Position numbers and translations under genes: made by a program
NCBI GenBank assembly: GCA_016699425.1
Contig: CP064975.1
Span: 2,979 to 66,978, forward strand
Direction: 5' to 3'
DNA: 64,000 nt
From: Candidatus Moraniibacteriota bacterium
GTDB lineage: Bacteria; Patescibacteriota; Minisyncoccia; Moranbacterales; UBA1568
Shown: positions 6,229 to 34,744 of the stretch, piece by piece
How positions within the stretch are numbered: the first letter of the stretch is position 1
Layout of the letters: every line of letters begins with the position of its first letter
The notes under the pieces: generated by a model
Databases searched by the model: none
Seen by the model: only the letters and a program-made list of their open reading frames with translations
What the model was told of the DNA's origin: nothing

Positions 6229-9200
6229 CTATGCCACGTTTGGTTTGTCAACGGTTGGCGGCTTTTCTCTCACATCAAACCACATCTCGTAGATGACCGG
6301 GATGAAGAAGAGCTTGGCGACACCGGAGAAACAGAGTCCAGCGATGATGGCACCGCCGAGTCCCTGCCAGATCGGGTCGGAGAGAGTGATCGGGATGAGG
6401 CCGACGATGGTCGTGAGCGCAGTGAGGAGGATCGGTTCGAGCCGGCTCGTGGCGCCCTCGACGACCGCTTCACGGACGGGGAGTCCGAGGTCGAGGTTCT
6501 TGTTGATCTTGTCGACCATGATGATAGAGTTGTTCACCACGATGCCGAAGAGTGCCAGGACGCCGATCAAGGCTGGGAAGGAAAGCGGGATCCCGAAGAG
6601 CGCAAAGATGACAAAGACACCGGAAACGGCGATTGGGATCACGAGAAGGACGATCAAAGCTTTCCGGAAGGAATTGAACTGAATCACCATAGTGCCGAAG
6701 ATAAGGACGGCCGAGAGGATCATCGCGTAGAGGATGGACTGGACGGACTTGTTGTTCTCTTCATTCACGCCCCCAGTTTTCCAGCTGTAATCGGCCGGGA
6801 GACCCAGCTCGGTATCGGCGAAGGTTTCAAGTCCTTTGTTGAGTTCAGTGACCGAATAGCCTTCGGCAACCGCGGCAGAGATAGAGATCGTTCTCTTTTC
6901 ATCCTCGCGGGTGATGAGAGTTGGATTTTTCTCAATGCTGACGGTGCCGAGTGAAAGGAGTGGTATCTGCTTTCCGGCAGGAGTCATCACGGACAGTCGT
7001 CCGAGGTCTTCGGGTGAGCTGAAATCCTCGCCGGTAAAGCGGATCACGATATCGCGCTTTTCGCCGTTGAAACGCACATCTTCCTTTACCGTATAGCCAC
7101 TCCCAAGAGTACGGATGAAGAGGGCGGTGTCAGCGGGACTGAGTCCGCTCGCTGCAAGCGCAGCTTCGTTCGGTGTGAAAGTGAGTTTCTTTCCGGCACT
7201 TGAAAGCGAGATAGAGACATTGCTCGTTCCTGGAACGCTCTGGAGATAGGTTTTCGTCTTTTCCGCGAGGTGTTGAAGGGTATCAAGGTCTTTGCCGAGC
7301 AGCTTGAGCTGGAGATCGGCACCTGCCGGCGGTCCACCAGAAAGCTGGGAAGCTGTCACAGTGCCGCCGTTCCAATCGGCGAATTCCCAGTCGAGCTCCT
7401 TTACGATTTCACCCGAGGATTTCAACCGTTCCTTGGCCTTGATGAGGTGAACCGTAAAGAGGATATGGTTGAAGTCTTTGCCGGTTGTACTCGTATTGCT
7501 GTCAGTCGGGGCGCCGGCACCGATTTCCGCAAGGACAAAATCAAGCTCGGCGAGCGAACGGAAGCGAGGAAGGAGTTCGTCGACGACTGCCCTCGCGCGG
7601 TCCTGGTTGGAACCGATAGGGAGTTCGGTACTGACGTAGACGGTATCGATATCGTCTTCCGGGAAAAATTCGTTCACGACGAAGCCGAGAGGTAGAAGGG
7701 CGTAGGAGGAAAGCATGAAGACGACGAGGAGAATGATGGTGAGTCGTCGCGCTCGCTTCGAAGAGAGAATGCGCTCGATCAGTGCCGAGTACCAGGTACT
7801 CAAGCGATCGAACGAGAGGAAACCGTGATCTTTGAAGCCGTCCCAGACTTTACCGGCTTGGGTCTGATGCCAGGCGGTGACGGACAAGAAGAAGGAATGT
7901 GCGAGACGGAATACGAGGAAGAGCATGACCACCCCGAGGAGGTAGAAAGCCCACTTGAACGGACCTCCGGGCATGAGGAAGTACAGCAGGGCGGCGACCA
8001 GAATGTAGGCAATCGTCTGGAGCAGGAGAACGACGCGACGGGGGAAGTTTCCTTCGAGAAACACTGCCATATACGGGATGACGAGGAGAAGCGCGGTTGC
8101 AGCCGAGAGGGCGAGTGCCGAGGAAACGACAATTGGAATCGGCCGGATGAATTCGCCGATGATGCCTGTTGCAAGGAGGAGCGGCACGAATGCCCAGACT
8201 GTCGTGATGGTCGTGGTTATGATGACACCACTGAAGTCGCGGTAAACCAGAAGCGCTGTTTCAATCGGGGTGAACTTGCCCGATCGGTGATAGCTCGCCA
8301 AGGCCGAGATGACGACGATCGCATTATCAACGATGATGCCGAGTGCGATGAGGAGAGAGAAGAGGGTAATGAAGTTAATGGAGATTCCCGCGGCCCCCAT
8401 TACGAGGAAAGTGACGAGGAAGGTGAAGGGAATGGCGAAGGCCGTGACAAGTGACTGGCGGATGCCGAAAAAGAGGAGGAGGACGACGAAGACGAGGCCA
8501 AAGGTTACGAGGAAGTCATGCTGCAATTGGCTGAAACTCCGATCGATTTCTTCCGCTCCATTGAAATAGTAGGCGGTTTCAAACGGAACTGACGAGGTTG
8601 AACGATAACTTTCGATCGCTCCTCGGACGCTATCGACGGTCTCGCGGGTATCGGAGCTTTCGGTCTGATAGACGGAAACGAAGATGGCGCGCGAACCGCT
8701 GACGGTGTGGCTCGCCATTGAGGCAGCGAGACTGCCGGGCTTCTCCGTCTCCTTGATGTTCGCTACCGATCCAAGCGGAACGATCTTACCATCGAGAGAG
8801 AGGGGAATATCGCGTAAATCTTGAACGGTTTCGGCTGATTTTGCCTGATCGAGAGAGAGGGCGGTGGCGCTTGAAGCGATAGTACCACCAGGAAAACTGT
8901 TGAGTGTGCTCGCGACCCGCTGGCCGATGCCGGCAATGTTGAGTCCGTACCCCTTAATGATCTCCGGTGAGAGCAAGATCGAGACTTCGGGATCGCGACG
9001 ATAGGAAAGACTTGCTTTTTCAACGGCGGGAAGTCGTTTGATCTCCTCGAGGAGGATGTCGGCAATTTCTGGGAGGGCACTTTCGTTACCGGGTGCCGAG
9101 AGTGCGAAGAGCATTACAGGCTGATTTGTAAAGTCTATCACCTCGACGGATGGATTCTGGGCGGCGTCGGGGAGCGTACTTACCTTGTCGATGGCATTCT

Positions 9201-9585: not shown

Positions 9586-10719
9586 TTAGCGAATGGGTTC
9601 AATAGTTTCGTCCGGCAGCACGGATGTTTCAAGCACAAGAGCGTTGCTTTTTTCGAGCCCACTTTTTACCACAACGGAAGCACCAATCGTTTCACCGAGC
9701 GTGACGTTTATCTCAGTGGTTTGATGGTTAGCATTCATGGTGACAACAGAGTTTCCGCTTGCGGCTGAACGGATAGCATCAATTGGAATGAGAAAGCCGC
9801 GCTCGGTTTCAGAGCGGAGTGGGAGCTCGAGCGTGACATAGCTGTTTTGAGCCACCGTATTGGCGACCGACGCGGGGAGTGGATAGGTGGCAACGACGAG
9901 ACCGTCGGCATTTTCGCTCCGACTAATATAACCTTGGGAAAGCGCGATCGAACCATCGACCGTTTGAATCAGGGCAATACCCGTATCAACGAGCGCATCG
10001 GCAGTCGCTTTGGGGAGCGTCGCTTCAATGGTCGTTGCCTGGGCCTGGCTGCGGATAGTCATCAGGACCGTTCCGGCCGAAACGAGTTCACCCGGACGGA
10101 CGGCGATGTATTCGACGGTACCTGAGATAAGGCTTTTCGGCTTGAGTGCAGCATCATTTCGTTCTGCGAGGGCGAGATCGAGTGCGGAGCTCGAGCGACT
10201 GAGTCGGAGACGTTCCAGTTCAAGCTTTAAGTTTTTCACACTTACTTTCTCTTCGCGGTCGGTCTTGGTATCGTCAGCGCGAGCGATGCGTCGTTCAAGC
10301 TCGATGATTTCCTTATCGAGGGCGAACGTCCGTTCGGTGAAGTCGGTTTGAAGACGCGCTTTCTCAACGGCAAGGGTCGCCGCACCGCTGTTCTAATCGC
10401 TGGTCAGCGTGGCGAGTGTTTGGCCAGGTGAAACGGTCTGCCCAGGACGAACGGCAATGGTTTTCACGACGCCCGGTGCGACAGCGACAATATCGGTAAT
10501 GCCAGATTTCTTAACCTGAGCTGAAACGGTCACTCGTCCCTGATCACTTCCAACGGTAAAGATCCGAGAAGTCTTGGTCATTTTTTCTGGGAGGGTCACT
10601 TCCGCTTTTGGGGCGCGAAGCCAGTGGGCGAAAGCAATCGTCGCAAACAGAATGACAACGACGGTCAAGAAACTGAGAATTGGCCGATTTTCGAGCCTGG
10701 TGAAAAGCGCTTTGAACAT
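9586..10719 (-). CDS. RND periplasmic adaptor / membrane-fusion protein (HlyD family), interrupted by an in-frame TAG at 10393-10395
   Basis: N-terminal TM anchor, coiled coil (KNLKLELERLRLS) and beta-barrel/MP domains. Both ORF halves share one reading frame, separated by a single amber codon. Confidence 0.75.
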
Positions 10720-12712: not shown

Positions 12713-15676
12713 TTGAGTTTGTTTTCTCGTATGTCAGAAACGCGCGCTAGAGTCATCCAATATGTTTTTATTCTTACTGCACTCCTTGTTCTGGCGAGCG
12801 TCGGTTGGTGGTACTACCACCAGTCCCAAGCCTCGACCAAGCTGCAAAACTCGCAGGCAGGGAGTTTGACCAATGGCCTCCAGGGCTATTGGCCGCTCGA
12901 TGGTGACACAGTCGTCTGGACAGATACAACGACCGAGCTCAAGGACAAGTCTGGCAATAATCGGCACATGAATTCTTCTGGACTCGGTATCGACGAGTCA
13001 GTACCGGGCCGGATCGGGCAAGGGCTACTCTTCACGCCTGGCGGTGGTGCCTATGGCGTTACCACGAATTCTTTCAATGCCTATACGACGGGGACGATAT
13101 CGATGTGGTTCAAATACAGTGGTACGCCGGGGCAGGTGGGTACCTCTGGGACGCTTTGGGACCACGAGGACTGCGGCAACAACAAAGGCCAATTCCAGAT
13201 CGCCATGGACACAGATAACAGTGAGCTGTATTTGTGGATGACACAGTCCGGTGCCGGGTGTACCGCGGCCATTGGTGCATCCGTCAATCTGCCCAATCCG
13301 ACGGCCTGGCATCACTTTGTCTTTACGGATGATACGGGTGGGCACAAGCTCTATATCGACGGTATCTTGCAAACTCTGACGTATGCGAGTGGCAATGCAT
13401 CTATAGACTTTTTCCTCGACAATGTTGTCGGTTCGAGCAATACGCCTCAGATCGGTGAAGTAAATAATGAGAACTTCAGTGGCACACTCGACGAGGTTCG
13501 TATCTACAATCGGGCGCTGTCGGCGGACGAAGCCTGGTCGCTGTACCGCCTCGGCCAAGTGACCATCAACACCCGGCCCGGTGATGATGTGTTGGAAGAG
13601 GGTCTGGCCGGGTACTGGAAGGTGGATGAAGGAACAGGGACAAGCACGACCGCCGATGCAACGGGCAATGGGAACAGCGCGACTATGACAAACATGGAGT
13701 CGGGCGACTGGGTGGCGGGACAAGTTGGTCCGTATGCGCTTGATTTTGATGGCACGAACGAGTACCTGAGTGTGACAGATCCGGCGAGTGGAGTCCTCGA
13801 CTTCGCTGATAGTACGAACTTTGCGCTCACGGGCTGGTTCAATCGGGACACCTTTGCAGCTGATCACACCGTGATCGCGAAGAAAAACGATCAGACGACC
13901 AATCAGGGATATGTCGTTTGGGTAGACAACAATGGCAGCACCGATACGCTTATCTTCGAAGCATCCGATGGAACTGATACCTATCAGGTGCCCTCCAAGA
14001 CACAGTTCAATGCGACTGGCTGGCATCACTTCGCGGTCAACTGGAATGATACGGCAGGCGTCAGTCTCTACATCGATGGGCACCTCGACACAGGTACGCC
14101 GACGGGTACGTTTGCCAATGTGAACGTGCTCTCCAACGCCCTCGCCTTCCGAGTGGGCGCCGAATCGGATGCCGGCGTTCCCTTTGATGGGAAGCTGGAT
14201 GAGATCAGAGTCTACCGGCGGGCGCTTTCGGCGGGTGAAGTATCGCTCCTGTATCTCGAGACGCACCCCGATGATCCGAATACGAACTTGGTCGGGTACT
14301 GGACGTTCGATGGGATGGATGTGAGCGGTACGACCGCCATCGACCGCGGGCGCGGCGGGAATACCGGGACGCTCACGGGTGGTCCGACCGTCACCCCGGG
14401 TCGCATCGGCCAGGCGCTCAAGTTCGATGGGGTGGATGACTATGTGAATGCCGGAGTGTCAGCCGTCCTCGATGACATCGCCACGCTCTCCACCTGCGCC
14501 TGGATCAATCCGCGGAGCGCTGGTGAGATCTATAGCGGTTCTGACCGCTTCGGTGGCATCGTGACCGAGGGCATCCCTGGAGGATGGTTTTTCATGACGA
14601 CCAATGTTTACGGATCAGTCAGGTTACTCTTCTATGTCTACTTTTCCGGAACGGACGGGGCATGGTATCCAACTTCCGACACGATCCCACTGAACACATG
14701 GACGCATGTCTGCTTCACCTACAACAATACGTCCGCGAGCAACGACCCCGTGCTCTATATCAACGGAGCGTCGGTGTCTTTGACGGAGGACAGTACGCCG
14801 ACCGGCACGGTGGATTCCAATGCTGGGAGCGAGCTCCATATCGGCACCAATGACGTGACGGATCAGGTCTTCGACGGACTGATCGATGATGTTCGCGTCT
14901 ATGATACGGCCCTGACACAGACGCAGGTCACCGAGCTGTATCGCTCGACCGGGGGCAAGGCGATCACCGCGTCCTCGGGCAATGATACGCTGCGGAGCGG
15001 TCTGGTGGGTCTGTGGAGTATGGACGGGCAGGATGTAAATTGGGCTGACACGACGACCGAGGTGAAGGATGATACAGCCGGTGCCAATCACGGCGACGCG
15101 ACCAATATGTCGGCCGCCTCCGTCGCTCCCGGCCGTGTCGGTCAGGCCATCGACCTCGACGGCACCGACGACTACATTAGCGTCACCGACACCGCCACCC
15201 TCGACTTCACCGACACCGCCGACCTCACCCTCTCGGGCTGGTTCAACCGCGACACTGCCACGACTGACGATACTCTCATCGCCAAAAGCAACGGCATCAC
15301 CGCTGGTGACACCGGCTATCTCGTCTACCTCGACGATGCCACCGATCAGCTCATCTTTGAAGTTTCAGATGGGACCGATGAATACTCCCTGACATCGACC
15401 ACCACCTTTACCACGACTGGCTGGCATCACTACACCATCACCTGGGACCAGGACTCCGCTGCCAACTCTGAAATCTATATCGATGGGACTGCCAACAGTG
15501 CCACCGATACCGGGACCATCGGGAATATCGGTGACCTCTCCAATGCCCTCGCTTTCCGCGTGGGTGCGGAGAGTGATAATGGTAACCCCTCCGATGGGAA
15601 GATTGATGACGTCCGAGTGTATAGCCGGGTGCTCTCCGCCAGCGAAGTGACCCAGCTGTACAACATGGGGCGGTAG
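12713..15676 (+). CDS. Membrane-anchored protein with 4 tandem LamG / concanavalin A-like lectin domains
   Basis: N-terminal signal anchor. The DEVRIYNRALSxxE / DDVRVYxxALS motif repeats four times. The protein ends ...QLYNMGR. Confidence 0.75.
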   Translation: MSLFSRMSETRARVIQYVFILTALLVLASVGWWYYHQSQASTKLQNSQAGSLTNGLQGYWPLDGDTVVWTDTTTELKDKSGNNRHMNSSGLGIDESVPGRIGQGLLFTPGGGAYGVTTNSFNAYTTGTISMWFKYSGTPGQVGTSGTLWDHEDCGNNKGQFQIAMDTDNSELYLWMTQSGAGCTAAIGASVNLPNPTAWHHFVFTDDTGGHKLYIDGILQTLTYASGNASIDFFLDNVVGSSNTPQIGEVNNENFSGTLDEVRIYNRALSADEAWSLYRLGQVTINTRPGDDVLEEGLAGYWKVDEGTGTSTTADATGNGNSATMTNMESGDWVAGQVGPYALDFDGTNEYLSVTDPASGVLDFADSTNFALTGWFNRDTFAADHTVIAKKNDQTTNQGYVVWVDNNGSTDTLIFEASDGTDTYQVPSKTQFNATGWHHFAVNWNDTAGVSLYIDGHLDTGTPTGTFANVNVLSNALAFRVGAESDAGVPFDGKLDEIRVYRRALSAGEVSLLYLETHPDDPNTNLVGYWTFDGMDVSGTTAIDRGRGGNTGTLTGGPTVTPGRIGQALKFDGVDDYVNAGVSAVLDDIATLSTCAWINPRSAGEIYSGSDRFGGIVTEGIPGGWFFMTTNVYGSVRLLFYVYFSGTDGAWYPTSDTIPLNTWTHVCFTYNNTSASNDPVLYINGASVSLTEDSTPTGTVDSNAGSELHIGTNDVTDQVFDGLIDDVRVYDTALTQTQVTELYRSTGGKAITASSGNDTLRSGLVGLWSMDGQDVNWADTTTEVKDDTAGANHGDATNMSAASVAPGRVGQAIDLDGTDDYISVTDTATLDFTDTADLTLSGWFNRDTATTDDTLIAKSNGITAGDTGYLVYLDDATDQLIFEVSDGTDEYSLTSTTTFTTTGWHHYTITWDQDSAANSEIYIDGTANSATDTGTIGNIGDLSNALAFRVGAESDNGNPSDGKIDDVRVYSRVLSASEVTQLYNMGR

Positions 15677-15701
15677 GAAAACCTCAATACTATTTTTCAG
15701 T

Positions 15702-15746
15702 GACACCACCCCTCCCGCCGCTCCGACGGGCTTGGGGGTAGAATAG
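15702..15746 (+). repeat. Cassette-boundary element copy b (intergenic, after the LamG gene)
   Basis: GACACCACCCCTCCCGCCGCTCCGACGGGCTTGGGGGTAGAATAG. Confidence 0.8.
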
Positions 15747-15904
15747 GGAGGGGATGTCATCGCGAGCTCAACTTATTCCAGCGGACGAAGAATCGAGAAA
15801 GTTGATTCTAACCGGTAAAATGCCTGTAGTTTGCTTTATGTAAATTTTGTGTATAATGAATACGTAAATAGAGTATAATGTATGTATCAGAAATACATAA
15901 AATC

Positions 15905-17041
15905 ATGATTAAGCGGTTTTATAGCCCGTTAGAGCCATTTTTGAAGCCAAACAAGGTTCTGGTTCTCTATGGACCACGGCGGGTGGGGAAAACAACTTTA
16001 CTGAAGGAACTCCTGGATACGACGTCACTGAAATATCGCTTTGATTCTGGGGAAAATATCCGCGTCCAGGAAATATTGGGGTCGAATGATTTTCAGGCGA
16101 TCAAGGAATACTTGGCCGGATACGAACTGCTCGCGATTGACGAAGCGCAGCAGATTCCCAATATCGGTCGCGGGCTGAAAATCATCGTTGATAGCATTCC
16201 CGGTATCAAAGTCATCGTGACGGGATCATCGAGTTTTGACTTGTTCAATCAGGTCGGCGAGCCGCTCGTGGGCAGAAAGACGACACTGACGCTCTATCCG
16301 TTTGCGCAGTGTGAACTGGCGGAGAGTTTCAATACGTCTGATCTCAAGGAGCGACTGGAGGAATTTCTGCTCTTCGGTTCCTACCCAGATGTACTGGTAG
16401 CGTACACACGGGAGCAGAAGATCACGTTTCTCAACGACATCGTTGACGCGTATCTTCTGAAGGACGTCTTGGCACTCGATGGCGTGAAGAAATCGAGGAC
16501 GCTCGTCGATCTCGTCAAACTGCTCGCGCTGCAGGTGGGAAATGAGGTTTCTTTGAATGAGCTCTCCAATACTCTGGATACCAATATCCGGACGATTGAG
16601 AAATATCTAGACATTCTGGAAAAAGGCTTTGTGATCGTGTCGCTCGGCGCATTGAAGCGGAATCTCCGCAATGAGGTGCGGAGCAAGCGGAAGTACTATT
16701 TCTACGATACCGGCGTCCGGAACGCGCTTCTGTCCCAATTCAATCGTCTGTCGGAACGGAATGACGTCGGAGCACTGTGGGAGAACTTCCTCTTCATTGA
16801 ACGCTTGAAGAAAAGCACGTATCAGCAGCACTATGCAAACCGATATTATTGGCGGACCTACGAGCAGCAGGAGATTGACTATATCGAGGAGTATGGAGGA
16901 GCGCTCCACGCGTATGAGTTCAAGTGGAACAAAGAGAAAGCGCCGCTCCCAAAAAAGTTTTTGGACGCGTACGGACAGTCTTCTTTCGATGTGGTGACAA
17001 AAGAGAATTATTGGGATTTTTTGGTTCGGCTGAGTTCGTGA
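15905..17041 (+). CDS. AAA+ ATPase with C-terminal DUF4143-like domain (ATP-binding protein)
   Basis: Walker A GPRRVGKTT. The gene and its upstream region are markedly AT-richer than the flanks (TGTGTATAATG extended -10 at ~15850). It lies between two boundary-element copies. Confidence 0.7.
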   Translation: MIKRFYSPLEPFLKPNKVLVLYGPRRVGKTTLLKELLDTTSLKYRFDSGENIRVQEILGSNDFQAIKEYLAGYELLAIDEAQQIPNIGRGLKIIVDSIPGIKVIVTGSSSFDLFNQVGEPLVGRKTTLTLYPFAQCELAESFNTSDLKERLEEFLLFGSYPDVLVAYTREQKITFLNDIVDAYLLKDVLALDGVKKSRTLVDLVKLLALQVGNEVSLNELSNTLDTNIRTIEKYLDILEKGFVIVSLGALKRNLRNEVRSKRKYYFYDTGVRNALLSQFNRLSERNDVGALWENFLFIERLKKSTYQQHYANRYYWRTYEQQEIDYIEEYGGALHAYEFKWNKEKAPLPKKFLDAYGQSSFDVVTKENYWDFLVRLSS

Positions 17042-17109
17042 GCGAGTCCAGAGCGGAATATGCTGTGATCAATACTTCAAACTTTCGACAATTTCTCGCA
17101 CCGTTGTAA

Positions 17110-17255
17110 TCGCATGCAGTAAAGTTCGCCACCCGCCGCGCCGACGGGGCTTGCCGTCGAGTAATCGAAGGCGGGCAGGGTTATTTTTTTTGGGGGGGTA
17201 CAGTGAGTGTCGCAGTGTTATTTGGAGGTTCGACCTCCAAGTGGATTGGAGGCTG
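17110..17255 (+). repeat. Second repeat family, copy 1: degenerate boundary element (..PPAAPTGLAVE*) plus GCCGTCGAGTAATCGAAGGCGGGCAGGG...CAGTGTTATTTGGAGGTTCGACCTCCAA palindrome
   Basis: Shares about 80 nt, including the TTGGAGGTCGAACCTCCAA palindrome, with 34745-34860. Confidence 0.6.
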
Positions 17256-17330
17256 GTTGGATCCATAATCGTATCATTTTGATAAGAATTCCAGCTTGAT
17301 TGCCAGTCTATTTTTGGCTACAATAGTGGC

Positions 17331-17940
17331 ATGTCTACATATCCGGTCTCAGCGATAGTTTTTCGGCAGAGCCTTTTTTGGGATGCAGATCCCAAAAGAC
17401 TCGATACCGAGAAAAATGCCCGTTATATCATCGAGCGGGTGCTTGATTTCGGGAACGCTGAAGAGATACGCTGGCTCTTCCAGCGGTATCTCTCGGAACA
17501 GGGAAAGTGGGTGACGACGCTTTGGGAAAAGGGGACATTGTACGGACTCTTTCTGGGAGCCAAGGTGAGTTTCATTGCGTATCCTTCTTTTCGTCCCTTG
17601 GACGATCGCGTGCGGTATCAGTCTATACACCTTCTCTCGCCGAGGGATATTGCCGCGATGAAGATCGTGGCCGTGAGCCAACGTGGGAAGAAACGTGATT
17701 TCTTTGACCTGTACTGGCTGGCGCATCATGGTATCCCTCTGAAAGAGGCGATTCTTGGGGCTTTGGAGTAGTATAGGAATCAGCAACAGAGCCTGCCACA
17801 TTTCCTGAAGAGTCTCGTGTATTTCGCGGAGGCTGAAGACGATCCGATGCCTGAGATTTCTTTTCAGACTGATTGGCAAATGGTCAAAGAGTATTTCGAA
17901 ACGAACGTGCCTACCCTGACGAAGGAGTTGCTCCGGCTGG
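17331..17940 (+). CDS. Nucleotidyltransferase AbiEii/DUF1814-like C-terminal-domain protein, interrupted by an in-frame TAG at 17770-17772
   Basis: KIVAVSQRGKKRDFFDLYWL and, after the TAG, LVYFAEAEDDPMP, which are characteristic C-terminal motifs of that family. One frame runs through the stop. Confidence 0.4.
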
Positions 17941-18032
17941 AATAAACGCACGATTTCGGCGATTTTTCATGTCCGTTCATAGCACGGGTACCGTGAACAT
18001 GAGTGACTCCCAATCACCATTGGTGGTACTCC

Positions 18033-18077
18033 GACATCACCCCGCCGGCGGCGCCGACAGCGCTCGGGGTACAATAG
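18033..18077 (+). repeat. Cassette-boundary element copy c (intergenic remnant, directly upstream of the family A1 start)
   Basis: GACATCACCCCGCCGGCGGCGCCGACAGCGCTCGGGGTACAATAG, then AAAGGAAACAC ATG. Confidence 0.8.
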
Positions 18078-18089
18078 AAAGGAAACACA

Positions 18090-20126: not shown

Positions 20127-20917
20127 ATGCATAAAACACAGCGGCTTGCATCTCTCTCGGTCTTTGGCATCATCCTCGGCCTCTTTCTCCTCTGGAGTCA
20201 CTCGGTCTCAGCCGCCGGCCGGGGGGTTTCGGATGGGTTCGAGGGCGGCACTACAACTCTTGGGCAGCTGGTACGACTACTGGTTCTGACGGCAAGTGTG
20301 ATGTCGTCTCGAGTGGCCCTCGACGGCGGATACGGCAGACGGTGGATCCAAAATGGCGCGATGTAATTGGGACGGGACTCAAGGAACTCTACGGCCACCG
20401 CAGCCAGAGATGATCAAGCGCGCCTGGTCGAAGTCGCGCGCTTCATCCGGTTCTGGGCGCTCGACAGCGATGTGGATTAAAGCAGGGCAAAGCTTTTCCG
20501 GCCTGGGGCCGTTAGTTTTTCAGGATTCCAGTTTGAATACGGGAGGGGCTACCCTTCTTTCCACTATTTACAAGAGCGATTCAACCCAGCTTGGCACAAC
20601 GAATTGGGGCGGTCCGAGGTGAGGGACGGTCATGGCACCTATCGAAATCTACTTGTTGGAATCAACACGGTCAGAATAAGGGCATTGCACGAATATGGGT
20701 AGACGAGGCTTGTGTTGGGACAAGGGGCAGCTGGGCCGGTTTTCACATGATATCAATTGGTCACTGAATCAGGCTGGGATCACGACGCGAACAATCACAC
20801 GTACTGGGATGATTTTGAGTTTCCGACACGGGACGGCACTGGTTCGATGTCGGCAGGGACGATCCAGGGCAGCGACACCACCCCGCCAGCGCGCCGACAG
20901 GGTTGGTGGTACAATAA
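20127..20917 (+). pseudogene. Degraded chimeric family-A cassette (A1-like N-terminus, A4-like C-terminus, multiple indels), ending with element copy f (20874-20917)
   Basis: Aligns at DNA level to 30552-31415 with several deletions and frame breaks. Confidence 0.6.
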
Positions 20918-20935
20918 CGCAAAGAGATAATACCT

Positions 20936-21800
20936 ATGCATAAATCGATGAGAGTTCGACACCTCGCTTGTTTGGTGGTAGTTCTCGGTGTGGGCATGGC
21001 TTTCGTTCCGTCTACTCAGGCGGTTGATTACCTCGGATCGACCGGAGTAGGGGAAACCTGGGAGACTCCGACCACCATCCCGACGAACTAGCCCTATCAG
21101 CAGTCCGCTTCGAACAGCTGTTCGCAGGCGAGTTGGAACGGCTGGGCAGGACGTGGCCTGGGGTGATACCTCGACCGAAGTGAAGGACACTTCCAGCAAT
21201 GCCAATCACGGCGATGCAACCAATATGTCCGCTGCCTCCGTCACTCCGGGTCGTATCGGGCAGGCACTCTCTTTTGACGGGACGGATGACACTGTCCTCG
21301 TCACGGACCCGGGGAGCGGCGTACTCGACTTCGGTGACACGGCGGACCTTACTGTTTCTGGGTGGTTCTACCGTGGCACGGCGACGACAGACGATACGAT
21401 AGTCGCCAAGCGTAACGGCATCACAGCCGGTGATACCGGGTATCTGGTTTTTATTGATGATGCGACCGATAAGCTTATTTTTGAGACCTCAGACGGAACG
21501 GATGAGTATAGCCTCACTTCGAGTGCGGCCTTTACTGCGGCCGGCTGGTATCATTTCGTCGTCGTGTGGGATCAGGACTCGGCGGCCAATTCCGAAATCT
21601 ATATCGACGGTGCGGCAGATGGCGCGACCGATGCGGGTACCATAGGCAATATTGGCGATCTTTCCAATGCTTTGGCTCTGGCGATCGGAACGGAGTCTGA
21701 TGCCGCCAACCCCTTTGATGGCAAGATCGATGACATCCGTGTGTATAGTCGAGCCTTGTCGACTGCTGAAGTAACGGAACTCTATAACCTGGGACGATAA
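20936..21800 (+). pseudogene. Short secreted LamG-domain cassette, copy 1 (in-frame TAG at 21089 replacing TGG, plus 1 frameshift)
   Basis: The first ~250 nt are nearly identical to 31434-31680. The LamG domain resembles domain 4 of the 12713 protein. It ends LYNLGR. Confidence 0.6.
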
Positions 21801-21879
21801 AAGAAGGCTATGAAAACCTACAGAGTGAGGCTTAGACTATCACGGTAGTGTGCCCCTACTGCTTGCGTTAGTTCGAGAG

Positions 21880-22535
21880 GCGTGTAATAAACGCATCGTT
21901 TTGACGCGGTTTGACGGGCTATGTATACTAATAGCGAAGGGCTGGGTATTGACAAGGTCGACCCATAGCCATTTTTTTCTAAGGTCCCACTTTGGGGGGG
22001 GTGAGTTCCCTCGCCTTCAGGCGATAACTTCCAGTACGATATACTGAAAGTATGACCACTGAATATCGAAAGTCTTCCCACTCCGTCTTCAGTATCCAAC
22101 TCCACATCGCCTGGATTACCAAGTACCGCTACAAGGTCCTGAAGGGTGAGATTGGACAAAGAGCCAGAGACCTCATCCGGCGCATCTGTATCGAAGAGAA
22201 TGTCGAGATCATCTCTGGTGCGTTGCTCCTGATCATGTCCACATTCTCGTCTCAGTCGACCCCTCGACCGCTCGAGCACCCTGGTCAAATGGAAAGGCAA
22301 GACATCCCGACAACTCCAGATGGAATACCCTTCACTCAAGAAACAGTACTGGGGCAGCACCTGTGGGCGAGAGGCTACTTTGTCGTCAGTGCCGGCAATG
22401 TCACCAAAGATATGATTAGGAATATATCGAACACCATTTTGAATCGAAAGAGACCGAAGATAGTTTCCGGGTCGAGGAGACGAGTTCCTAGATTTCCAAT
22501 CTAATCCCAATCTGTGCACTTCCAGTGCACAGTGG
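21880..22535 (+). mobile_element. IS200/IS605-family insertion sequence (approximate bounds) with terminal hairpin CTGTGCACT-TCC-AGTGCACAG at 22511-22531
   Basis: Contains a Y1 HUH transposase gene and subterminal hairpins (GGGCTATG...CATAGCC on the left, a perfect 9-bp stem on the right). Confidence 0.5.
22052..22504 (+). CDS. tnpA: IS200-like Y1 (HUH) transposase TnpA, read across 2 frameshifts
   Basis: KYRYKVL, PDHVHILVS (HUH, in a shifted frame) and YWGQHLWARGYFVVSAG (catalytic Tyr region). Confidence 0.7.
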   Translation: MTTEYRKSSHSVFSIQLHIAWITKYRYKVLKGEIGQRARDLIRRICIEENVEIISGALLLIMSTFSSQSTPRPLEHPGQMERQDIPTTPDGIPFTQETVLGQHLWARGYFVVSAGNVTKDMIRNISNTILNRKRPKIVSGSRRRVPRFPI

Positions 22536-22669
22536 TTGAAATGTTCGGATTTTTTTAATAAACCATACCGTATGCAGTATCGAAACAGAGACGCCGTTTT
22601 GGAATCAGAGAAAGGATGTGGGATAGATCGATGTACTAGACAGCAGCGTGTTTCCGTCGGACTCACCTC

Positions 22670-28498: not shown

Positions 28499-29341
28499 AT
28501 GAACAGGATATTTCTCGCACTTTTCGGTATCACCCTCGCTCTCGGATTCTTTTTCCTCTCTCCACATTCAGCCTTAGCCGCGGGGCGGGTGCTGACAGAC
28601 GGTTTTGAGTCCGGCAACAATAATCTCTGGTCGCAGAATCCGTTAGGCAAGAACAAATGCCCTGTCGTCATCCAATCGACGTCGGTCGGAAGTGTCGCAC
28701 CGCATACCGGTAGCTACGCGGCCCAGTGTAATTGGACGAACCTCGACTGGCAGGATCCCAACTTTTATAACGCCAATTTTTTTGAATCCAGTAACTACAC
28801 CTCAGATGTCTTTATTCGTTTTTGGGTCCGCTACGACAATGATGTGGACTTAAACACTGGTTCTAAACTACTACGTTTTGGTGATCTTGGTGGTTCGTTT
28901 TGTGACTTCCAATTGGAACAGGGAGTGAGTGCAGGAGTTATTTGTCAGATATATGCCGTCCGCGGAGGAAATGCCAATTGGCTCAGTCCCAACTGCTACT
29001 CAGCGGCGACAAACATCAGGCAGTGGAACAAATTTGAGATCTATATAAAAGAGGGCGTTAGTGGTCAGGCAAAAGTGTGGCTCAATGATAATTTATTCTG
29101 TGACCGAAGCGGCAACACGACCCAAGACGAGTCATGGGCGCGTGTGAACGCCGTTTCAAATTGGTCCAATGAAGTCGGTTGGGAACACGACATGAATAAT
29201 CATACGTACTTCGACGATTGGGAAATCTGGACCGACAATGCCAATGAAGCACACACGGGCACGATGGCAGGCGGTGACATCGCCGCCAACGGCACCGACA
29301 CCACCCCACCCGCCGCGCCGACGGGACTGGGGGTACAATAA
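28499..29341 (+). CDS. Secreted family A copy 3, ending DTTPPAAPTGLGVQ (element copy h, 29297-29341)
   Basis: Signal peptide ...SALAAGRVLTDGFESG. The start lies 5 nt after the previous stop. Confidence 0.7.
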   Translation: MNRIFLALFGITLALGFFFLSPHSALAAGRVLTDGFESGNNNLWSQNPLGKNKCPVVIQSTSVGSVAPHTGSYAAQCNWTNLDWQDPNFYNANFFESSNYTSDVFIRFWVRYDNDVDLNTGSKLLRFGDLGGSFCDFQLEQGVSAGVICQIYAVRGGNANWLSPNCYSAATNIRQWNKFEIYIKEGVSGQAKVWLNDNLFCDRSGNTTQDESWARVNAVSNWSNEVGWEHDMNNHTYFDDWEIWTDNANEAHTGTMAGGDIAANGTDTTPPAAPTGLGVQ

Positions 29342-29348
29342 ACTCATC

Positions 29349-30544
29349 ATGACCACTGCAAAATACAAATCAATCTTTCTGGCTGTTTTTTTACCCCTCC
29401 TCTTCTTCAGCTTGGCAAAAATTGCACTCGCTGCTCCCTCTATCAGTGGCACCAGTGGAACGTGGTCGCACGGCGGCAGCGTGACGGTCAACGGGTCGGC
29501 CTTTGGGACCAAGACCACGGCCGCGCCGCTTGTTTGGGATGATGCGACAGGGGGGACGCTGCTGGACAAGTGGGATGGCAAATACCCAAATTGCACAACC
29601 GACCATCGGTACGACCCAAACTACACGACCAGCATTCGGGGGATCTCGCTGCCGCATGCCCGTGCGACGAAATACATAGCTGGCGCGCATGCGAGTACAG
29701 GATCGGCGAATTCAGAATGCGGTTATGACGTAGGGTTTTGGAAGTTTCGGCCTACGATGCCTGGCTATCCGTCGTATACCTACTTTAGCTACTATTTTCG
29801 GGTCGATGACAACTTCCAGTTCGGCCTGAACGACGGGGACAACAACTTCAAAATGGCGTCCGTCGATCAGGGCCATGTCGCGGCGTTGGGTAGTCCGTAC
29901 ACCATGTCGGTCAACATCGGCGTGCCCTATTCACCCCCTGGATCCCCGCAGTACGTCATTTATTCGACCAACGAACGATTCGACATCCCTGATCTGAACG
30001 GGCACAGCGGATTCTGGAATTTCAACGGGAATGATTGGTGGTCAGGGGTATGGACGAAAATAGAATACGAATACAAACATTCCACGCCCGGCACGGACGG
30101 GTGGCTAAAAGTTTGGGAAGACGGCCGCGTGCTGGTCGATTACAGGGGGCGTTTCGGCCTGCCGCCGCCTGAGAATGACCTGACGCAAACGCATCTTATT
30201 GGGGGTTACTCGCGTAATTACCAGATCAACACCACAACTGGAACTAACTACCGGTATTACGCCGATGTGTACTACGACACGTCCGCGGCGCGTGTCCTTT
30301 TGTGCCAGAACAACACATACTCATCGAGAGGAATTTGCGAGAACCAGCGCGCGACCTCTTGGGCTAGCGGCTCGATTGCGACGACAGTCAATGCCGGCCG
30401 GTTCGCTAACGCGAGTACGGCTTATCTGTATGTGTGCGACGACGCCGGGGCATGCAACGCCAACGGAACGGCGATCGTCATTGCAGCTGGCGGCGGCGGG
30501 GACACCACTCCTCCTTCCGCGCCGACCGGACTGGGGTACAATAG
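29349..30544 (+). CDS. Secreted family B copy 2, ending DTTPPSAPTGLG (element copy i, 30501-30544). Its stop is out of frame because of a 1-nt loss in a G run, so the ORF track fuses it with the next gene.
   Basis: AAPSISGTSGTWSHGGSVTVNGSAFGTK... is the same N-terminus as 18930. Confidence 0.7.
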
Positions 30545-30551
30545 AGACATC

Positions 30552-31415
30552 ATGAAAAACTCATTTCAGAAATCATTTCTTATTCTTTTCACGCTCGCTT
30601 TAGGTTTGTCACTAGACTCAAGCAGCGCGTTCGCCGCCGGCCGGGTGTTTTCTGATGGCTTCGAGGACGGTACGACGAATGCTTGGGCACCCGGCGAGAG
30701 TAGTGGTTATTACGCCAAGTGTGATGTCGTCTCGAGTGCCCTCGATGGCGTGATAGGCCCGCACGGTGGCTCGAACATGGCACGCTGTAATTGGGACGGG
30801 ACTCAAGGAACTTATGGCCACCGCAGCCAGGAGATGATCAAGAGCGCTTGGTCGAAGTCGCGCGAAAGCTTCATCCGGTTCTGGGTGCGCATCGACAGTG
30901 ATGTGGATTACAAACAGGGAGCTAAGCTGTTTCGCGGTCCTGGGGCCGTTAGTTTTTCAGGATTCCAGTTTGAATACGGGACAGGGGCTACCCTTCTTTC
31001 CACTATTTACAAGAGCGATTCAACCCAGATTGGCACAACGAATTGGGGCTGTGGTCCTGAGGTGAGGGACGGTGCATGGCACTCTATCGAAATCTACTTG
31101 TTGGAATCAACACCTAGTCAGAATAATGGCATTGCACGAATATGGGTAGACGACGGCTTGTGTTGGGAAGCGACAAGTGTCAATACCGACGACCCGCTGG
31201 GGGCCGGGTACTGGGCCGATTTTCATATGATATCCAATTGGTCACTGAATCCAGGTTGGGATCACGACGCGAATAATCACACGTACTGGGATGATTTTGA
31301 GATTTTCTCTGACACGGGTACCGGCATGACTGGTTCGATGTCGGCAGGGACGATCACTCAGGGGGGCAGTGATACCACCCCGCCAGCTGCGCCGACAGGG
31401 TTGGTGGTACAATAA
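30552..31415 (+). CDS. Secreted family A copy 4, ending DTTPPAAPTGLVVQ (element copy j, 31371-31415)
   Basis: MKNSFQKSFLILFTLALGLSLDSSSAFAAGRVFSDGFEDG... Confidence 0.7.
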   Translation: MKNSFQKSFLILFTLALGLSLDSSSAFAAGRVFSDGFEDGTTNAWAPGESSGYYAKCDVVSSALDGVIGPHGGSNMARCNWDGTQGTYGHRSQEMIKSAWSKSRESFIRFWVRIDSDVDYKQGAKLFRGPGAVSFSGFQFEYGTGATLLSTIYKSDSTQIGTTNWGCGPEVRDGAWHSIEIYLLESTPSQNNGIARIWVDDGLCWEATSVNTDDPLGAGYWADFHMISNWSLNPGWDHDANNHTYWDDFEIFSDTGTGMTGSMSAGTITQGGSDTTPPAAPTGLVVQ

Positions 31416-31433
31416 CGCAAAGAGATAATACCT

Positions 31434-32280
31434 ATGCATAAATCGATGAGAGTTCGACACCTCGCTTGTTTGGTGGTAGTTCTCGGTGTGGGCATGGCTT
31501 TCGTTCCGTCTACTCAGGCGGTTGATTACCTCGGATCGACCGGAGTAGGGGAAACCTGGGAGACTCCGACCACCATCCCGACGAACTGGCCCTATCAGCA
31601 GTCCGCTTCGAACAGCTGTTCGCAGGCGAGTTGGAACGGCTGGGCAGGACGTGGCCTGGGGCGATACGACGACCGAAGTGAAGGACACCTCCGGCAACGG
31701 GGACCACGGCGACGCGACGAATATGTCGACTGCTTCCGCCACTCCGGGTCGTATCGGGCAGGCGCTGAACTTCGACGGAGTGAATGACTATATTGCATTG
31801 GGGTCACCTGCTGTACTGGACGATATCGTCAATCTGACAACATGCGCGTGGGTCAACCCGGACGGTACGGCTGATGGGAGTATCGTCACCAAGGATGATT
31901 CTACAACCGGCTGGAACGTGTACTACACTGAGGCGGATGGTCGCGCACGCTTCGTACGGGGGTGGTCGGGCGGTGACGCTTTTTGGCAGACGGGCAGTGG
32001 GGTAATTCCAGATAGTACATGGACGCATATTTGTCTCTCATACAACGATAGTTCAACCACCAATGATCCAGCGTTCTACATCAATGGCGCCCTGGTCTCG
32101 TCCACGGAAACGGTAGCTCCGTCCGGGACGCCCAATAGCGATGCGACCTTCGTAGGGGCGATTGGGTCATATGGCAATGGCTTGAATGATTTTTTCGACG
32201 GCAAGATCGACGAAGTCCGGGTGTACAACCGGGTGATCACGTCCGCCGAAGTGACTCAGCTGTATAATCTGGGGCGGTAG
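31434..32280 (+). CDS. Short secreted LamG-domain cassette, copy 2 (one frameshift at ~31655: ggcag versus ggccag)
   Basis: Signal peptide, then WPYQQSASNSCSQASWNGWAG, then a LamG domain like domain 3 of the 12713 protein. It ends LYNLGR. Confidence 0.65.
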
Positions 32281-32313
32281 CCTCTTATAAAAATGAATGA
32301 GCAGTACTGCAGC

Positions 32314-32358
32314 GACACCACAGCGCCTGCTGTGCCGAGGGGGCTCGGAGTACAGTGA
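32314..32358 (+). repeat. Cassette-boundary element copy k (intergenic, diverged: TTAPAVPRGLGVQ*)
   Basis: GACACCACAGCGCCTGCTGTGCCGAGGGGGCTCGGAGTACAGTGA. Confidence 0.7.
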
Positions 32359-32369
32359 TTTGAAATGGT

Positions 32370-33294
32370 ATGACTGGAAATTCCTTCGGAAGGAGACGAG
32401 CTTCAGTGGCAGTCGTGGTCATCAGTCTATTCGTTGCACCATCGGCGGCGGAAGCTACAGTCTACATTAACCAAAATGCTGAATCCCTCACGTGTGGAGC
32501 GAATATTCCGGAGTCAGTTTTTTGGCCGGGGGGCGATGGGAATCCAACGGCGGCCACGGGGCATGTGAATTGTGGAGGTGCTCCTCAAGGCAATAAGTAT
32601 TTTGAGTGGACCACGGTTGCCGGGCAGGGGGACGGCGGGAAATTCAACTCCCGTGGGACCCACGAGACCGACCCCGAATTTGCTCGGGACGACGATTTAC
32701 CTCGGCATGTATTTTAATTTCACTCGGATCAACGGGGTGGATATATGGTACAAGCCTGGAAATGATACCGGCGATAAAGGAACTGAATTATTTGGAAATG
32801 GTATTCGCTGGGATATCGGTCAAGGGTGGGGCACGTGGGGTGGTACGCAAGGATCAGTCGGACACTATACGATATGGGAAGCGAATCCGTCGTTTCACCT
32901 CAACCCTTCAATCGAATACTATGATGCGATTCCCAATAATCGAGGGGGGTATGGAGTAGGGCATTCCGTGCAGCTCGCGTATGACACCTGGCACTCACTC
33001 GTCCGAGTGATCAGGTTTTCGAATACCAATACGGGGTACGTTGCATTGTATGCTGATGGTGTCCTTATTTCAGAATATGACAATATAATCACTGCAGCGA
33101 ACAATACTCCAGACATCGACATCATCGGACTCGGTGGAACGATGTGTCAGCCAGCGTATGATTGCCCGCCCCATCACCGAAGATATGATGCATTCTTACT
33201 CACCGACAGCTGGCAAGATATCGTAAACGGTGGTTATCTCGGTGGGAGTGACACCACCCCTCCTGCGGCGCCGACAGCGCTCGGGGTGCAGTGA
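32370..33294 (+). CDS. Secreted protein, family C (one frameshift ~32700), ending DTTPPAAPTALGVQ (element copy l, 33250-33294)
   Basis: Signal peptide AVVVISLFVAPSAAEA. The C-terminal body resembles the fragment at 34804-35157. Confidence 0.6.
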
Positions 33295-33329
33295 TTGCGC
33301 GAGACACGATGTCATGTTAATCTGTACGT

Positions 33330-33908
33330 ATGAGTACAGAAAAAATGGACGGTAAAAACGAGCGATTCACGTACTTGGCTCGCTCCGGCGAGACGGTGTT
33401 CCATGCGCGTGACCTGGCTAACTTGTGGGGAATCACCAGCGCGAATACGCTCTATACGACGCTCAAACGATATGCTCAAACCGGGGTACTGTTTCGTATC
33501 TACAAGGGTTTCTACTCTCTCCACCCACCATCAGAGATCAATCCGTATCTCCTGGGTGTTAAAGCACTGCATCAATACGCCTACGTCAGTACCGAAACAA
33601 TCCTGAGCCGCGAGGGCATCATCAATCAGCCGATGCGACACATCACTCTGGTGAGCGCACAATCGAAACATCTGACCATCGGGCAACGACAGTATCTTTC
33701 CAGAAGATTGCGGGCCGCTTTCTTGTTTAATAATGCCGGTGTCGTTGAGAAGGACGGAGTGTACTTTGCAAGTGTCGAGCGGGCGGTTGCCGATATGCTC
33801 TATTTCAACCCACGTTTTCATTTCGATGCAGAGGCACTTATTGACTGGAAAAAGGTCAGGCGAGTGCAACAGCAAGTGGGGTATTTGCCAATAACGAGAA
33901 ATATATGA
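33330..33908 (+). CDS. AbiEi-family antitoxin / transcriptional regulator (type IV TA)
   Basis: 192 aa N-terminal wHTH protein. It overlaps the downstream AbiEii gene by 4 nt (ATGA). Confidence 0.65.
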   Translation: MSTEKMDGKNERFTYLARSGETVFHARDLANLWGITSANTLYTTLKRYAQTGVLFRIYKGFYSLHPPSEINPYLLGVKALHQYAYVSTETILSREGIINQPMRHITLVSAQSKHLTIGQRQYLSRRLRAAFLFNNAGVVEKDGVYFASVERAVADMLYFNPRFHFDAEALIDWKKVRRVQQQVGYLPITRNI

Positions 33909-34654: not shown

Positions 34655-34744
34655 TCCGCGGTGCCTACCTCTTGAGAAACAGCAGCAACATTGCAGTTGT
34701 CAGCGTTCAATTTAAGTTCGATGGTACCAACCTCTCCGTCGAAG

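Follow-up and report, generated by a model that had tools for sequence, protein, structure and literature searches.

A PDC-S01 ATPase gene and its flanking repeats in a secreted-protein gene array of a Candidatus Moraniibacteriota genome

The subject of this report is a 64,000-nt stretch of DNA (the window, whose own coordinates are used throughout) from a metagenome-assembled genome (MAG) of Candidatus Moraniibacteriota, which belongs to the Patescibacteria or candidate phyla radiation (CPR; locus tags IPJ68_000xx), and in particular an ATPase gene of the candidate defence family PDC-S01 that lies, together with two kinds of repeat, among genes for secreted proteins. These genes form a same-strand array at 12.6-36.8 kb of the window, which averages 54% GC, and they represent the Laminin_G_3 (LamG), Polysacc_lyase-like and chondroitinase-B-like families plus two families without a Pfam match. 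With a probability of roughly 0.7, we read the region as a 1.5-kb accessory segment within a recombination-prone array of paralogous secreted-protein genes, in which the repeats are gene-end and junction sequences. Comparison with related loci established the indel status of the segment, the positions of its breakpoints, the native context of the second kind of repeat, and a protein-level constraint on the boundary element of the array, here called the tail.

In the mechanism that we propose, the direct tail copies, of which there are at least 16, would act as substrates for homologous and microhomology-mediated recombination, and the gene bodies between them would be duplicated, truncated, fused or replaced. 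Genes that are not array genes, namely the PDC-S01 ATPase, a pair of AbiEi and AbiEii genes and an IS200 element, would become fixed between tails; the cargo of the segment would be a self-contained PDC-S01 ATPase gene with its own promoter and palindrome pair, and the copies of the second repeat would be remnants lying beside the newcomers, not signatures of an insertion mechanism. The tail is not a recombination site as such. The gene that drew attention to the region is in itself ordinary, one more PDC-S01 gene at a variable locus that collects defence genes, and close relatives often differ in their accessory genes at such loci; it is the organisation of the array that is unusual, with a tail common to non-homologous secreted proteins, apparently serving as promoter of the next gene, and containing most of the mapped breakpoints.

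The ATPase segment and its empty counterpart

The window was compared with the syntenic array of a close relative (L013), with loci of the same arrangement from other samples (L014-L016, which together with L013 make one independent 'empty' lineage), with a more distant relative used as outgroup (L017), with two loci of ATPase homologs (L001 and L002), and with further tail-bearing array loci (L003, L005 and L010). The close relative was found through the gene remnant at 34804-35157, which led to intact 335-aa orthologs on contigs including L013, whereas an alignment of four Polysacc_lyase-like (PL) family paralogs, used as query, found no relatives in the GTDB representative genomes. Counts of repeats and boundary elements on the source genome refer to the 64-kb window, and Pfam scans covered ~45 of the largest open reading frames (ORFs) across it, including every ORF named here. 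The features of the segment and its surroundings, all on the plus strand, are as follows.

12713-15676, plus strand: LamG_a, a four-repeat Laminin_G_3 secreted protein (Pfam Laminin_G_3 3.7e-91), the array gene upstream of the ATPase segment
15677-15701, plus strand: LamG 3' spacer ending TTTCAGT, the last part collinear with the relative; left breakpoint after 15701
15702-15746, plus strand: orphan tail t15702, DTTPPAAPTGLGVE and stop, with TAGAAT instead of TACAAT; its first base is the start of the indel segment
15747-15829, plus strand: unique spacer between the orphan tail and the ATPase promoter region, without a match by blastn or tblastx
15830-15904, plus strand: promoter/operator region carried along with the ATPase gene (DNA homology to L001 and L002)
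15905-17041, plus strand: intact AAA_14 + winged helix-turn-helix (wHTH) + DUF4143 (PD-(D/E)XK) ATPase of 378 aa, candidate defence gene PDC-S01 (Pfam, PADLOC)
17042-17128, plus strand: unique spacer 3' of the ATPase, no homolog found
17129-17165, plus strand: 5'-truncated tail variant (SS)PPAAPTGLAVE and stop, which opens copy 1 of the second repeat
17149-17176, plus strand: hairpin A, GCUUGCC-G-UCGA[GUAA]UCGA-A-GGCGGGC, with the stop UAA within a GNRA-type loop (fold, pair counts)
17191-17217, plus strand: G-run, TACAGT (relic of the tail's -10 half) and GAGTGTCGCAGTG; right indel breakpoint within ~17213-17218
17218-17244, plus strand: hairpin B (UUAUUUGGAGGU-UCG-ACCUCCAAGUGG), with its ortholog at L013 3598-3622 and its paralog at 34836-34862
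17331-17950, plus strand: DUF6922::AbiEii pseudogene (Pfam; comparison with L013)
18033-18077, plus strand: orphan tail t18033, DITPPAAPTALGVQ and stop, its TACAAT 13 nt ahead of the PL1 start codon (ATG at 18089); L013 synteny ends at 18036

Downstream of the array the backbone of L013 is collinear with the window and 90.5% identical over 8.9 kb, comprising genes for ABC-F, a 298-aa protein, a GH18/deacetylase/GT2 protein, MacB and an ABC ATPase, and blocks inside the array are 95-97% identical. LamG_a, which ends ..LYNMGR and stop without a tail, has its ortholog at L013 649-3567. From that point the order in L013 and L016 is the LamG stop, a 31-nt spacer ending TTCAGT (TCTTCAGT in L013), hairpin B, a promoter, and intact DUF6922 and AbiEii genes, with no ATPase, tail or hairpin A between LamG and the DUF6922-AbiEii module. 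The window follows L013 up to 15701 (..TTTCAGT) and again from 17219, and 15702 to ~17215 is therefore a presence/absence segment of ~1.5 kb, which opens with the orphan tail and a spacer, continues with the ATPase module and another spacer, and closes with the ..GLAVE tail, hairpin A, and the T8 and G runs. Present in one genome and absent from a relative that is 90-97% identical, the segment shows in a clear-cut case how a defence-type gene is gained or lost in an uncultivated CPR lineage, with breakpoints that can be read to the base.

The ORF at 15878-17041 encodes 387 aa, with AAA_14 (Pfam 2e-26) at residues 25-147 and DUF4143 (1.8e-36) at residues 195-351, and Walker A (GPRRVGKTT) and Walker B (LLAIDEAQ) motifs can be read in the translation. 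Since homologs begin MIKRF.., the true start is probably 15905 (MIKRFYSPLEPF...) rather than 15878. Residues 1-373 of the protein match positions 1-373 of the 375 of PADLOC model PDC-S01 (PDLC04789; E 5e-144), i.e., its full length, and the protein is 100% identical to the NCBI MAG protein P0001; the call of an AAA/DUF4143 ATPase gene with an AT-rich upstream region, already made in the original prediction, is thus borne out by Pfam and PADLOC, by 35% GC at 15747-15904, and by two TATAAT hexamers, at 15852-15857 and 15874-15879. PDC-S01 is among the commonest candidate defence systems, widespread and still unvalidated, with an ATPase fused to a PD-(D/E)XK domain (PMC12988326), the superfamily to which DUF4143 belongs (PMC3424549). 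A function of the present gene in phage defence is accordingly that of a family candidate, and it may be proposed from family membership. Nothing sets the window copy apart from its family: it has the full-length profile match and the two-domain architecture, and it is a single-gene unit embedded among defence and toxin-antitoxin (TA) genes ('guilt-by-embedding'), the neighbouring TA module being here a pseudogene.

The gene appears to travel with its regulation. DNA similarity to the homologs of 83% identity (L001, between DprA and an Lcl_C protein) and of 74% identity (L002, CP065011.1, between MurD and a Fib_succ_major-bAvd-RT retroelement) starts at 15844 and 15830, respectively, 60-75 nt before the start codon, and reaches ~17020, near the ATPase stop, in L001, the weaker match to L002 stopping inside the gene. 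The shared leader contains TGTAT-N5-ATACA palindromes at 15850-15864 and 15882-15898, which overlap or follow the TATAAT hexamers, and the palindrome pair is kept upstream of the PDC-S01 ATPase in three unrelated contexts (window; L001 ~9895-9945; L002 ~9945-9995). Wherever the ATPase gene is located, then, it comes as one unit with its AT-rich leader and retains its regulation, and the palindromes are probably an autoregulatory operator for the wHTH domain of the ATPase itself. The element downstream of the homolog in L002 (11375-14326) is a diversity-generating retroelement, with a Fib_succ_major-type target, bAvd and RVT_1.

The contrast that had first been drawn between a low-GC gene and a high-GC array holds for total GC, at 49.3% for the ATPase gene and 54.0% for the window mean (sd 3.2 among genes), and dissolves at synonymous sites, where its GC3 of 62.8% is average (mean 62.5%, sd 6.6), so that a check of GC by codon position leaves no anomaly. 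The shortfall sits at codon position 2 (31.7%), as in the cytoplasmic genes ABC-F (34.6%) and g44152 (30.9%), while the secreted proteins encoded next to it, with their abundant Gly, Thr, Ala and Pro, show a GC2 near 50%. The low GC of the gene comes from its amino-acid composition, and neither composition nor phylogeny points to a distant donor. A recent horizontal transfer of the gene from a remote donor of low GC is accordingly very improbable: it would account for a gene of 49.3% and an upstream region of 35-41% GC beside array genes of 55-58%, but GC3 equals the window mean, the best homologs with a source name (60-83% identity) come nearly all from Moraniibacteriota, Parcubacteria and Paceibacterota, all Patescibacteria/CPR, and the AT-rich upstream region is a conserved regulatory region and not a compositional relic. 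Low total GC need not mean foreign origin, and the suggestion of a foreign origin by composition is not supported.

The tail at the gene boundaries

The boundary element of the array is a 45-nt coding sequence for a conserved C-terminal peptide, DTTPPAAPTGLGVQ followed by a stop codon, which is common to non-homologous secreted proteins. At least 16 copies lie in direct orientation within 24 kb (window 12621-36741), and twelve ungapped copies translate to DTTPPAAPTGLGVQ or near variants. Codon position 3 has a column entropy of 1.12 bits, and positions 1-2 only 0.17-0.26, a concentration that places the tail under peptide-level selection. The same peptide closes Polysacc_lyase-like homologs of only 38-57% identity from other metagenomes, and more distant homologs of that family end in the related ..P.DV.VE or ..L.V.Q. 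Further tail copies stand in L005 (4779, 5903, 6727 and 7913), L013 (5721-11915) and L010 (474 and 2507); a scan with the tail pattern found two loci in the JGI metagenomes and no match in viral contigs. The copy that had been reported upstream of the ATPase is indeed present (15702-15746): it begins 25 nt past the LamG stop, is in frame with no gene, and is absent at the same position in L013 and L016.

Besides its peptide, the tail may supply a signal to the gene that follows. Its last codons, GGG GTA CAA TAR (GGGGTACAATA), are invariant even synonymously wherever an array gene comes next, and at most junctions (window, L003, L005, L010 and L013) the next ATG stands 6-9 nt after TACAAT. The last gene of an array retains the peptide without TACAAT (window 36697, GTGAATTGA; L005 7913, ATCCAGTAG), and the array in L005 opens with a non-coding orphan tail that has a perfect TATAAT 7 nt before the ATG. 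We infer that the tail is dual-coded, providing the C-terminal peptide of the upstream protein and a putative -10 box for a leaderless downstream mRNA, in which case orphan tails would persist in front of genes. Several points weigh against this: the promoter reading of TACAAT draws on conservation and spacing, no -35-like hexamer was found at the tails, and the consensus promoter scan does not list them. A literature search on leaderless transcription in CPR and on concanavalin-type arrays in Moranbacteria found nothing directly relevant. It is a speculative and rather doubtful extension that the tail is a dual-purpose module peculiar to these CPR arrays, which, since every gene would start and finish with the same sequence, would make of them a recombinase-free cassette system that shuffles surface-protein genes and could gain or lose defence genes (PDC-S01, AbiE) between tails. 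If mapping of transcription start sites bore out the tail promoter, this would be relevant to how Patescibacteria express their genes and diversify their surface proteins.

A second segment of the window, at 33273-34754 (half a tail, AbiEi, AbiEii and an Ig-like remnant), is likewise without counterpart in L013, where the intact gene of one secreted-protein family, family C, comes directly after the PL6-like gene. Its features are the following.

33250-33294, plus strand: tail of PL6, chimeric, with synteny to L013 up to 33272 and a 3' half that matches t18033 at 92% identity
33330-34654, plus strand: AbiEi (33330-33908) and AbiEii (33905-34654), a type IV TA/abortive-infection pair (PADLOC, Pfam)
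34687-34803, plus strand: Ig-like domain remnant (NIAVVSVQFKFDGTNLSVE) with tail t34759 (DTTPPTSPTSLAVE and stop)
34768-34862, plus strand: second-repeat copy 2, made up of a tail 3' part, hairpin A (34791-34812), a TATGAT box and hairpin B (34836-34862)
34865-35157, plus strand: 3' third (from ~codon 240) of a 'family C' secreted-protein gene, ending DTTPPAAPTGLARE and stop (intact orthologs P0160/P0167)

The comparison of synteny in relatives that the original prediction had proposed thus bears out its expectation, both segments being absent from the array in L013, L014, L015 and L016 and most block ends falling at tails. Both are bounded tail to tail, and five of eight further synteny-block ends lie in tails or at most 2 nt from them (18036, 32312, 33272, 35141 and 36696), the remaining three (17219, 31645 and 34865) falling at hairpin B or at gene-fusion junctions; hairpin B itself stands at, or within 6-10 nt of, two rearrangement junctions. 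Inside the tails the crossover points vary, at 3, 22 and 28 nt in, which fits homologous exchange between repeats and not a fixed site.

These breakpoints bear directly on an integron-like capture, in which the tails, the second repeat or both would be the sites of a dedicated site-specific recombinase, possibly encoded elsewhere. The likeness is real in that the array is unidirectional, has a short repeated element at every junction and carries TA- or defence-type cargo, that both indel segments are bounded tail to tail, that hairpin B keeps so close to two rearrangement junctions, and that its stems are conserved while the loop varies. Such a capture is nevertheless highly improbable. An integron attC site (R''-L''...L'-R', with a GTTRRRY core) conserves structure and not sequence, whereas the tail keeps its sequence at codon positions 1-2 and varies at third positions like coding sequence under protein selection; hairpin B has GTTATTT and not GTTRRRY, lacks an R''/L'' partner, and is found at only 2 of ~16 boundaries. 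Integron cassettes are promoterless and served by Pc, but each of the ATPase, DUF6922-AbiEii and AbiEi genes comes with -10/-35-like sequences of its own. The crossover points are not fixed, and in the relative the second repeat joins ordinary genes that are both intact. Among ~45 of the largest ORFs of the window, Pfam scans found no IntI and no other integrase or recombinase except a decayed IS200 Y1 transposase, whose end hairpins are unrelated, and nothing resembling attC was seen; the absence of intI and attC, which had been remarked on from the outset, therefore stands within that scope, and the analogy with integron cassette arrays is not supported.

As a separate observation, the tails at 20874, 28457 and 30501 show single-base differences in G or C runs that shift the frame, the one at 30501 fusing two genes into a 725-aa ORF (29238-31415); these homopolymer differences could be assembly errors or real slipped-strand variation.

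The second repeat as a junction variant

The second repeat occurs in the window as copy 1 (17129-17244) and copy 2 (34768-34862). A degenerate boundary element followed by a distinct repeat had been described downstream of the ATPase, and both are found there from 17129 on; the similarity of the cores (17129-17240 and 34768-34858) gives z = 20 against shuffles, well beyond chance, whereas the flanks give z = 0.6, and each half of the repeat has exactly 2 matches in the window, with 0 expected. The recurrence after the AbiEi/AbiEii pair is likewise confirmed: copy 2 starts 114 nt past the AbiEii stop and reads in frame into a gene remnant, though across a TAA. The 'perfect palindrome' that had been noted within the repeat is an inverted repeat, but it proves to be a stem with a 3-nt loop (hairpin B DNA GGAGGT-TCG-ACCTCC in copy 1, GGAGGT-CGA-ACCTCC in copy 2). 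An extension of the similarity to the ATPase and AbiEii stops, suggested by gapped alignment, was rejected on the flank z of 0.6.

What the repeat is becomes readable in the close relatives. The complete repeat stands between two intact array genes in L013 (7928-8044) and L016 (5129-5257), the genes around it in L013 being 6885-7976, which encodes a 363-aa Polysacc_lyase-like protein ending ..GLAVE and stop, and 8051-9046. The parts of this junction are the ..GLAVE tail, hairpin A (which consists of the last codons and their inverted copy, with the UAA in its GUAA loop), a degenerate duplicate of the tail -10 half (GGGGAGGGATATGAT), and the 12-bp hairpin B, which belongs to the 5' region of the next gene and lies ~15 nt before its ATG. 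A sister junction type, with ..GLARE and stop, a spacer and a duplicated GGGGGTACAAT, is found at window 35113 and at L013 5721 and 6800. Hairpin B occurs by itself between LamG and the DUF6922-AbiEii module in L013 and L016, with no foreign gene near. Since the complete repeat joins two intact array genes in the relative, it is a native junction variant and not the insertion scar for which it had originally been taken; a repeat beside an insert is not necessarily a scar of its insertion. A search around the left edges of both segments for the repeat termini, in direct or inverted orientation, found no copies.

Both window copies lack the gene body that once preceded them. In copy 1, the half made up of tail and hairpin A has 5 differences from the L013 gene-6/gene-7 junction in 52 positions compared by eye (~90% identity) and is 80% identical to copy 2, and the hairpin B loop (TCG) is that of the LamG-AbiE site; halves of different junction types suggest a recombinant join. 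Copy 2 is 85.7% identical to the same L013 junction (7928-8044), and a few bases of microhomology connect its right edge to codon ~240 of a family-C gene (L013 10719-10992 corresponds to window 34865-35141, 91% identical). The idea that copy 2 was ancestral coding sequence of the fused remnant was rejected, as the similarity to intact orthologs does not start before 34865. The 5' 73 codons of the family-C gene stand at 31459-31645, 3.2 kb upstream of the remnant and fused to a LamG fragment, with a duplicate at 20961-21147.

These last two stretches belong to a 300-nt duplication (20891-21190 and 31389-31688, 99% identical, spaced by 10,498 nt), each member of which joins the first ~73 family-C codons out of frame to the last LamG repeat, of LamG_b and LamG_c, respectively; they are chimeric gene fragments left by segmental duplication.

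The structure of the repeat raises another explanation, to which we give some credence, though well short of even odds: the second repeat could be a functional RNA element, hairpin A with the copy 1 U-run serving as terminator or insulator and hairpin B as a 5'-UTR or regulatory structure, its position beside newcomers being incidental. Both copies fold into the same two hairpins (hairpin B alone, z -3.0 and -4.4), and pairing across five copies takes in 93% of cells, compared with 33-54% for slid controls, with all stem differences compatible with pairing and the loop differing at 3 positions. In L013 the element sits between a stop codon and the next ATG, and in copy 1 a T8 run (17183-17190) follows hairpin A 6 nt later, which possibly gives the ATPase gene a terminator-like 3' end as a secondary adaptation. 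That the hairpins act as terminator or insulator may be proposed from their folds; but all changes among the five copies are one-sided, without any double-sided compensatory change, which weighs against it, and the U-tract is confined to copy 1, being absent from copy 2 and from the L013 and L016 copies. The consensus scan lists neither hairpin, coding would in any case constrain the 5' arm of hairpin A, and a DNA palindrome bound by a dimeric protein would yield the same pattern. Rfam 15 offers no family: at permissive thresholds copy 1 has no match at E <= 10, and copy 2 only a chance miRNA match (E 0.19, 20 vs 79 bits). Exact-pattern scans for hairpin B and its flank in collections of genomes, metagenomes and viral contigs, among which the source genome is not included, gave no match. 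Hairpin B was also considered as an end of the IS200/IS605 or PATE type and rejected, since the hairpins of the IS200 remnant differ and GGAGG-N-CCTCC is found only at the two repeat copies.

Gain or loss of the segment and its neighbours

The gene downstream of the segment, at 17331, derives from a two-gene module of DUF6922 and AbiEii that is intact in relatives. An in-frame internal deletion of 304 nt has joined the DUF6922 ORF with the C-terminal two-thirds of AbiEii (L013 3598-3869 corresponds to window 17219-17490, and L013 4174-4727 to window 17484-18036, both at 97% identity), and a nonsense codon, TAG for CAG, stands at 17769-17771; the AbiEii profile is matched at positions 121-177 only, short of an intact toxin. 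The gene has its own promoter, TTGATT-17-TACAAT at 17296-17324 (promoter scan), and since it is common to L013/L016 and L017 it is ancestral (old) at the locus. Compared with the AbiE type IV TA system, the pair at 33330-34654 agrees with it, consisting of adjacent AbiEi and AbiEii genes that overlap by 4 nt (PADLOC 3e-27 and 3.3e-26; the NCBIfam AbiEi match is below its curated cut-off, 57 vs 150 bits), whereas the 17331 copy is inactivated and its partner is DUF6922 and not a canonical AbiEi. A duplicated block containing both AbiEii-type genes and the repeat was rejected, there being no significant similarity between the two genes.

In the outgroup L017 (1127-3210), intact DUF6922 and AbiEii genes (85% aa identity) are followed by an orphan tail and then by a different PDC-S01 ATPase, which is 26% identical to that of the window (PADLOC 1.9e-43), and no ATPase stands upstream of the module. 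That this TA module has unrelated PDC-S01 members next to it in two lineages, and no such neighbour in a third, indicates that the locus collects such genes. Accessory genes thus do gather at the array boundaries, as the notion of an integration hotspot for foreign defence or selfish genes had it, while the foreign origin it implied finds no support in composition.

As to polarity, a gain of the segment in the window lineage is somewhat favoured over a loss in the relative, because L017 has no ATPase on that side, the module occurs at unrelated loci elsewhere, and copy 1 looks recombinant. Four considerations tell against the accessory-gain account and have to be set beside it: CAGT(G) stands at both edges of the segment (15697-15701 and 17213-17217), which argues for a loss in L013; the L013 LamG spacer ends in CAGT, which resembles the Ser codon preceding tails, so that L013 may have lost a tail-led segment; there is only one independent 'empty' lineage (L013-L016), the outgroup having a different upstream gene; and no remnant of a replaced array gene was detected in the two spacers that flank the ATPase module, for which (15747-15829 and 17042-17128) blastn and tblastx against the window and all fetched loci found no homologs.

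In its explicit form, the opposite account holds that the ATPase, and perhaps the AbiE pair, is ancestral and that L013/L016 lost it by a microhomology-mediated deletion of the form CAGT...CAGT. A single CAGT at the L013 junction, set against CAGT(G) at both window edges, is what this would leave, other LamG 3' spacers run directly into a tail (32281-32358), so that a tail after LamG looks older, and the synonymous-site composition of the ATPase is native. We nonetheless think it rather unlikely, since the L013 junction reads CAGT/ATTTGG and not the CAGT/GTTATTTGG expected from a clean deletion, the outgroup lacks an ATPase upstream of the module, close homologs stand at unrelated CPR loci with their own promoter and operator, as for a relocating gene, and the ~90% identity of the first half of copy 1 to the L013 gene-6/7 junction (5/52), next to a hairpin B of the LamG-AbiE type, suggests a recombinant join. 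The outcome named beforehand as telling against an insertion, namely ATPase and AbiE genes that are ancestral in related genomes and free of compositional anomaly, was found in part: the anomaly is absent in GC3 and the 17331 gene is ancestral, yet the ATPase and the AbiE pair are absent from the relative. With either polarity, the indicated mechanism is recombination among tail repeats together with microhomology joins.

The ATPase, the AbiEi/AbiEii pair and the IS200 element are, by the sequence comparison, real accessory indels in a recombination-prone array. In this the locus resembles the defence islands and variable-region hotspots, with PDC-S01, AbiE, DUF6922-AbiEii and an insertion sequence clustered at one place and differing between close relatives, but it is without an integrase, tRNA or mobile-element backbone, and its hotspot is a paralogous secreted-protein array with most mapped breakpoints in a repeated coding tail. 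With surface-protein gene arrays of the contingency type it shares tandem paralogs, conserved termini as breakpoints, chimeric and truncated genes, and segmental duplications; it differs from them in a tail that is common to non-homologous families and seems to carry the promoter of the next gene, and no silent-cassette/expression-site logic is evident in the window.

Some further observations concern the array and the window at large. The IS200 element is a decayed Y1 transposase of the IS200/IS605 family at 21810-22640 (ORF 22052-22504), at another boundary of the array, right after the LamG_b stop, and absent from the array of the relative; its C-terminal half no longer matches the family profile, and its own end hairpin, CTGTGCAC..GTGCACAG, lies at ~22508-22530. 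On a phage-like contig (L007 1-20846/L008, with terminase, portal and capsid genes), a 56%-identical Polysacc_lyase-like homolog of the array proteins is followed by fn3 and CBM_4_9 proteins, which hints that this family is common to CPR hosts and their phages. Outside the array, a tmRNA gene (Rfam 101 bits; ARAGORN gave no tmRNA) adjoins smpB, the two lying at window 48998-49442 and 49483-49938, both on the minus strand.

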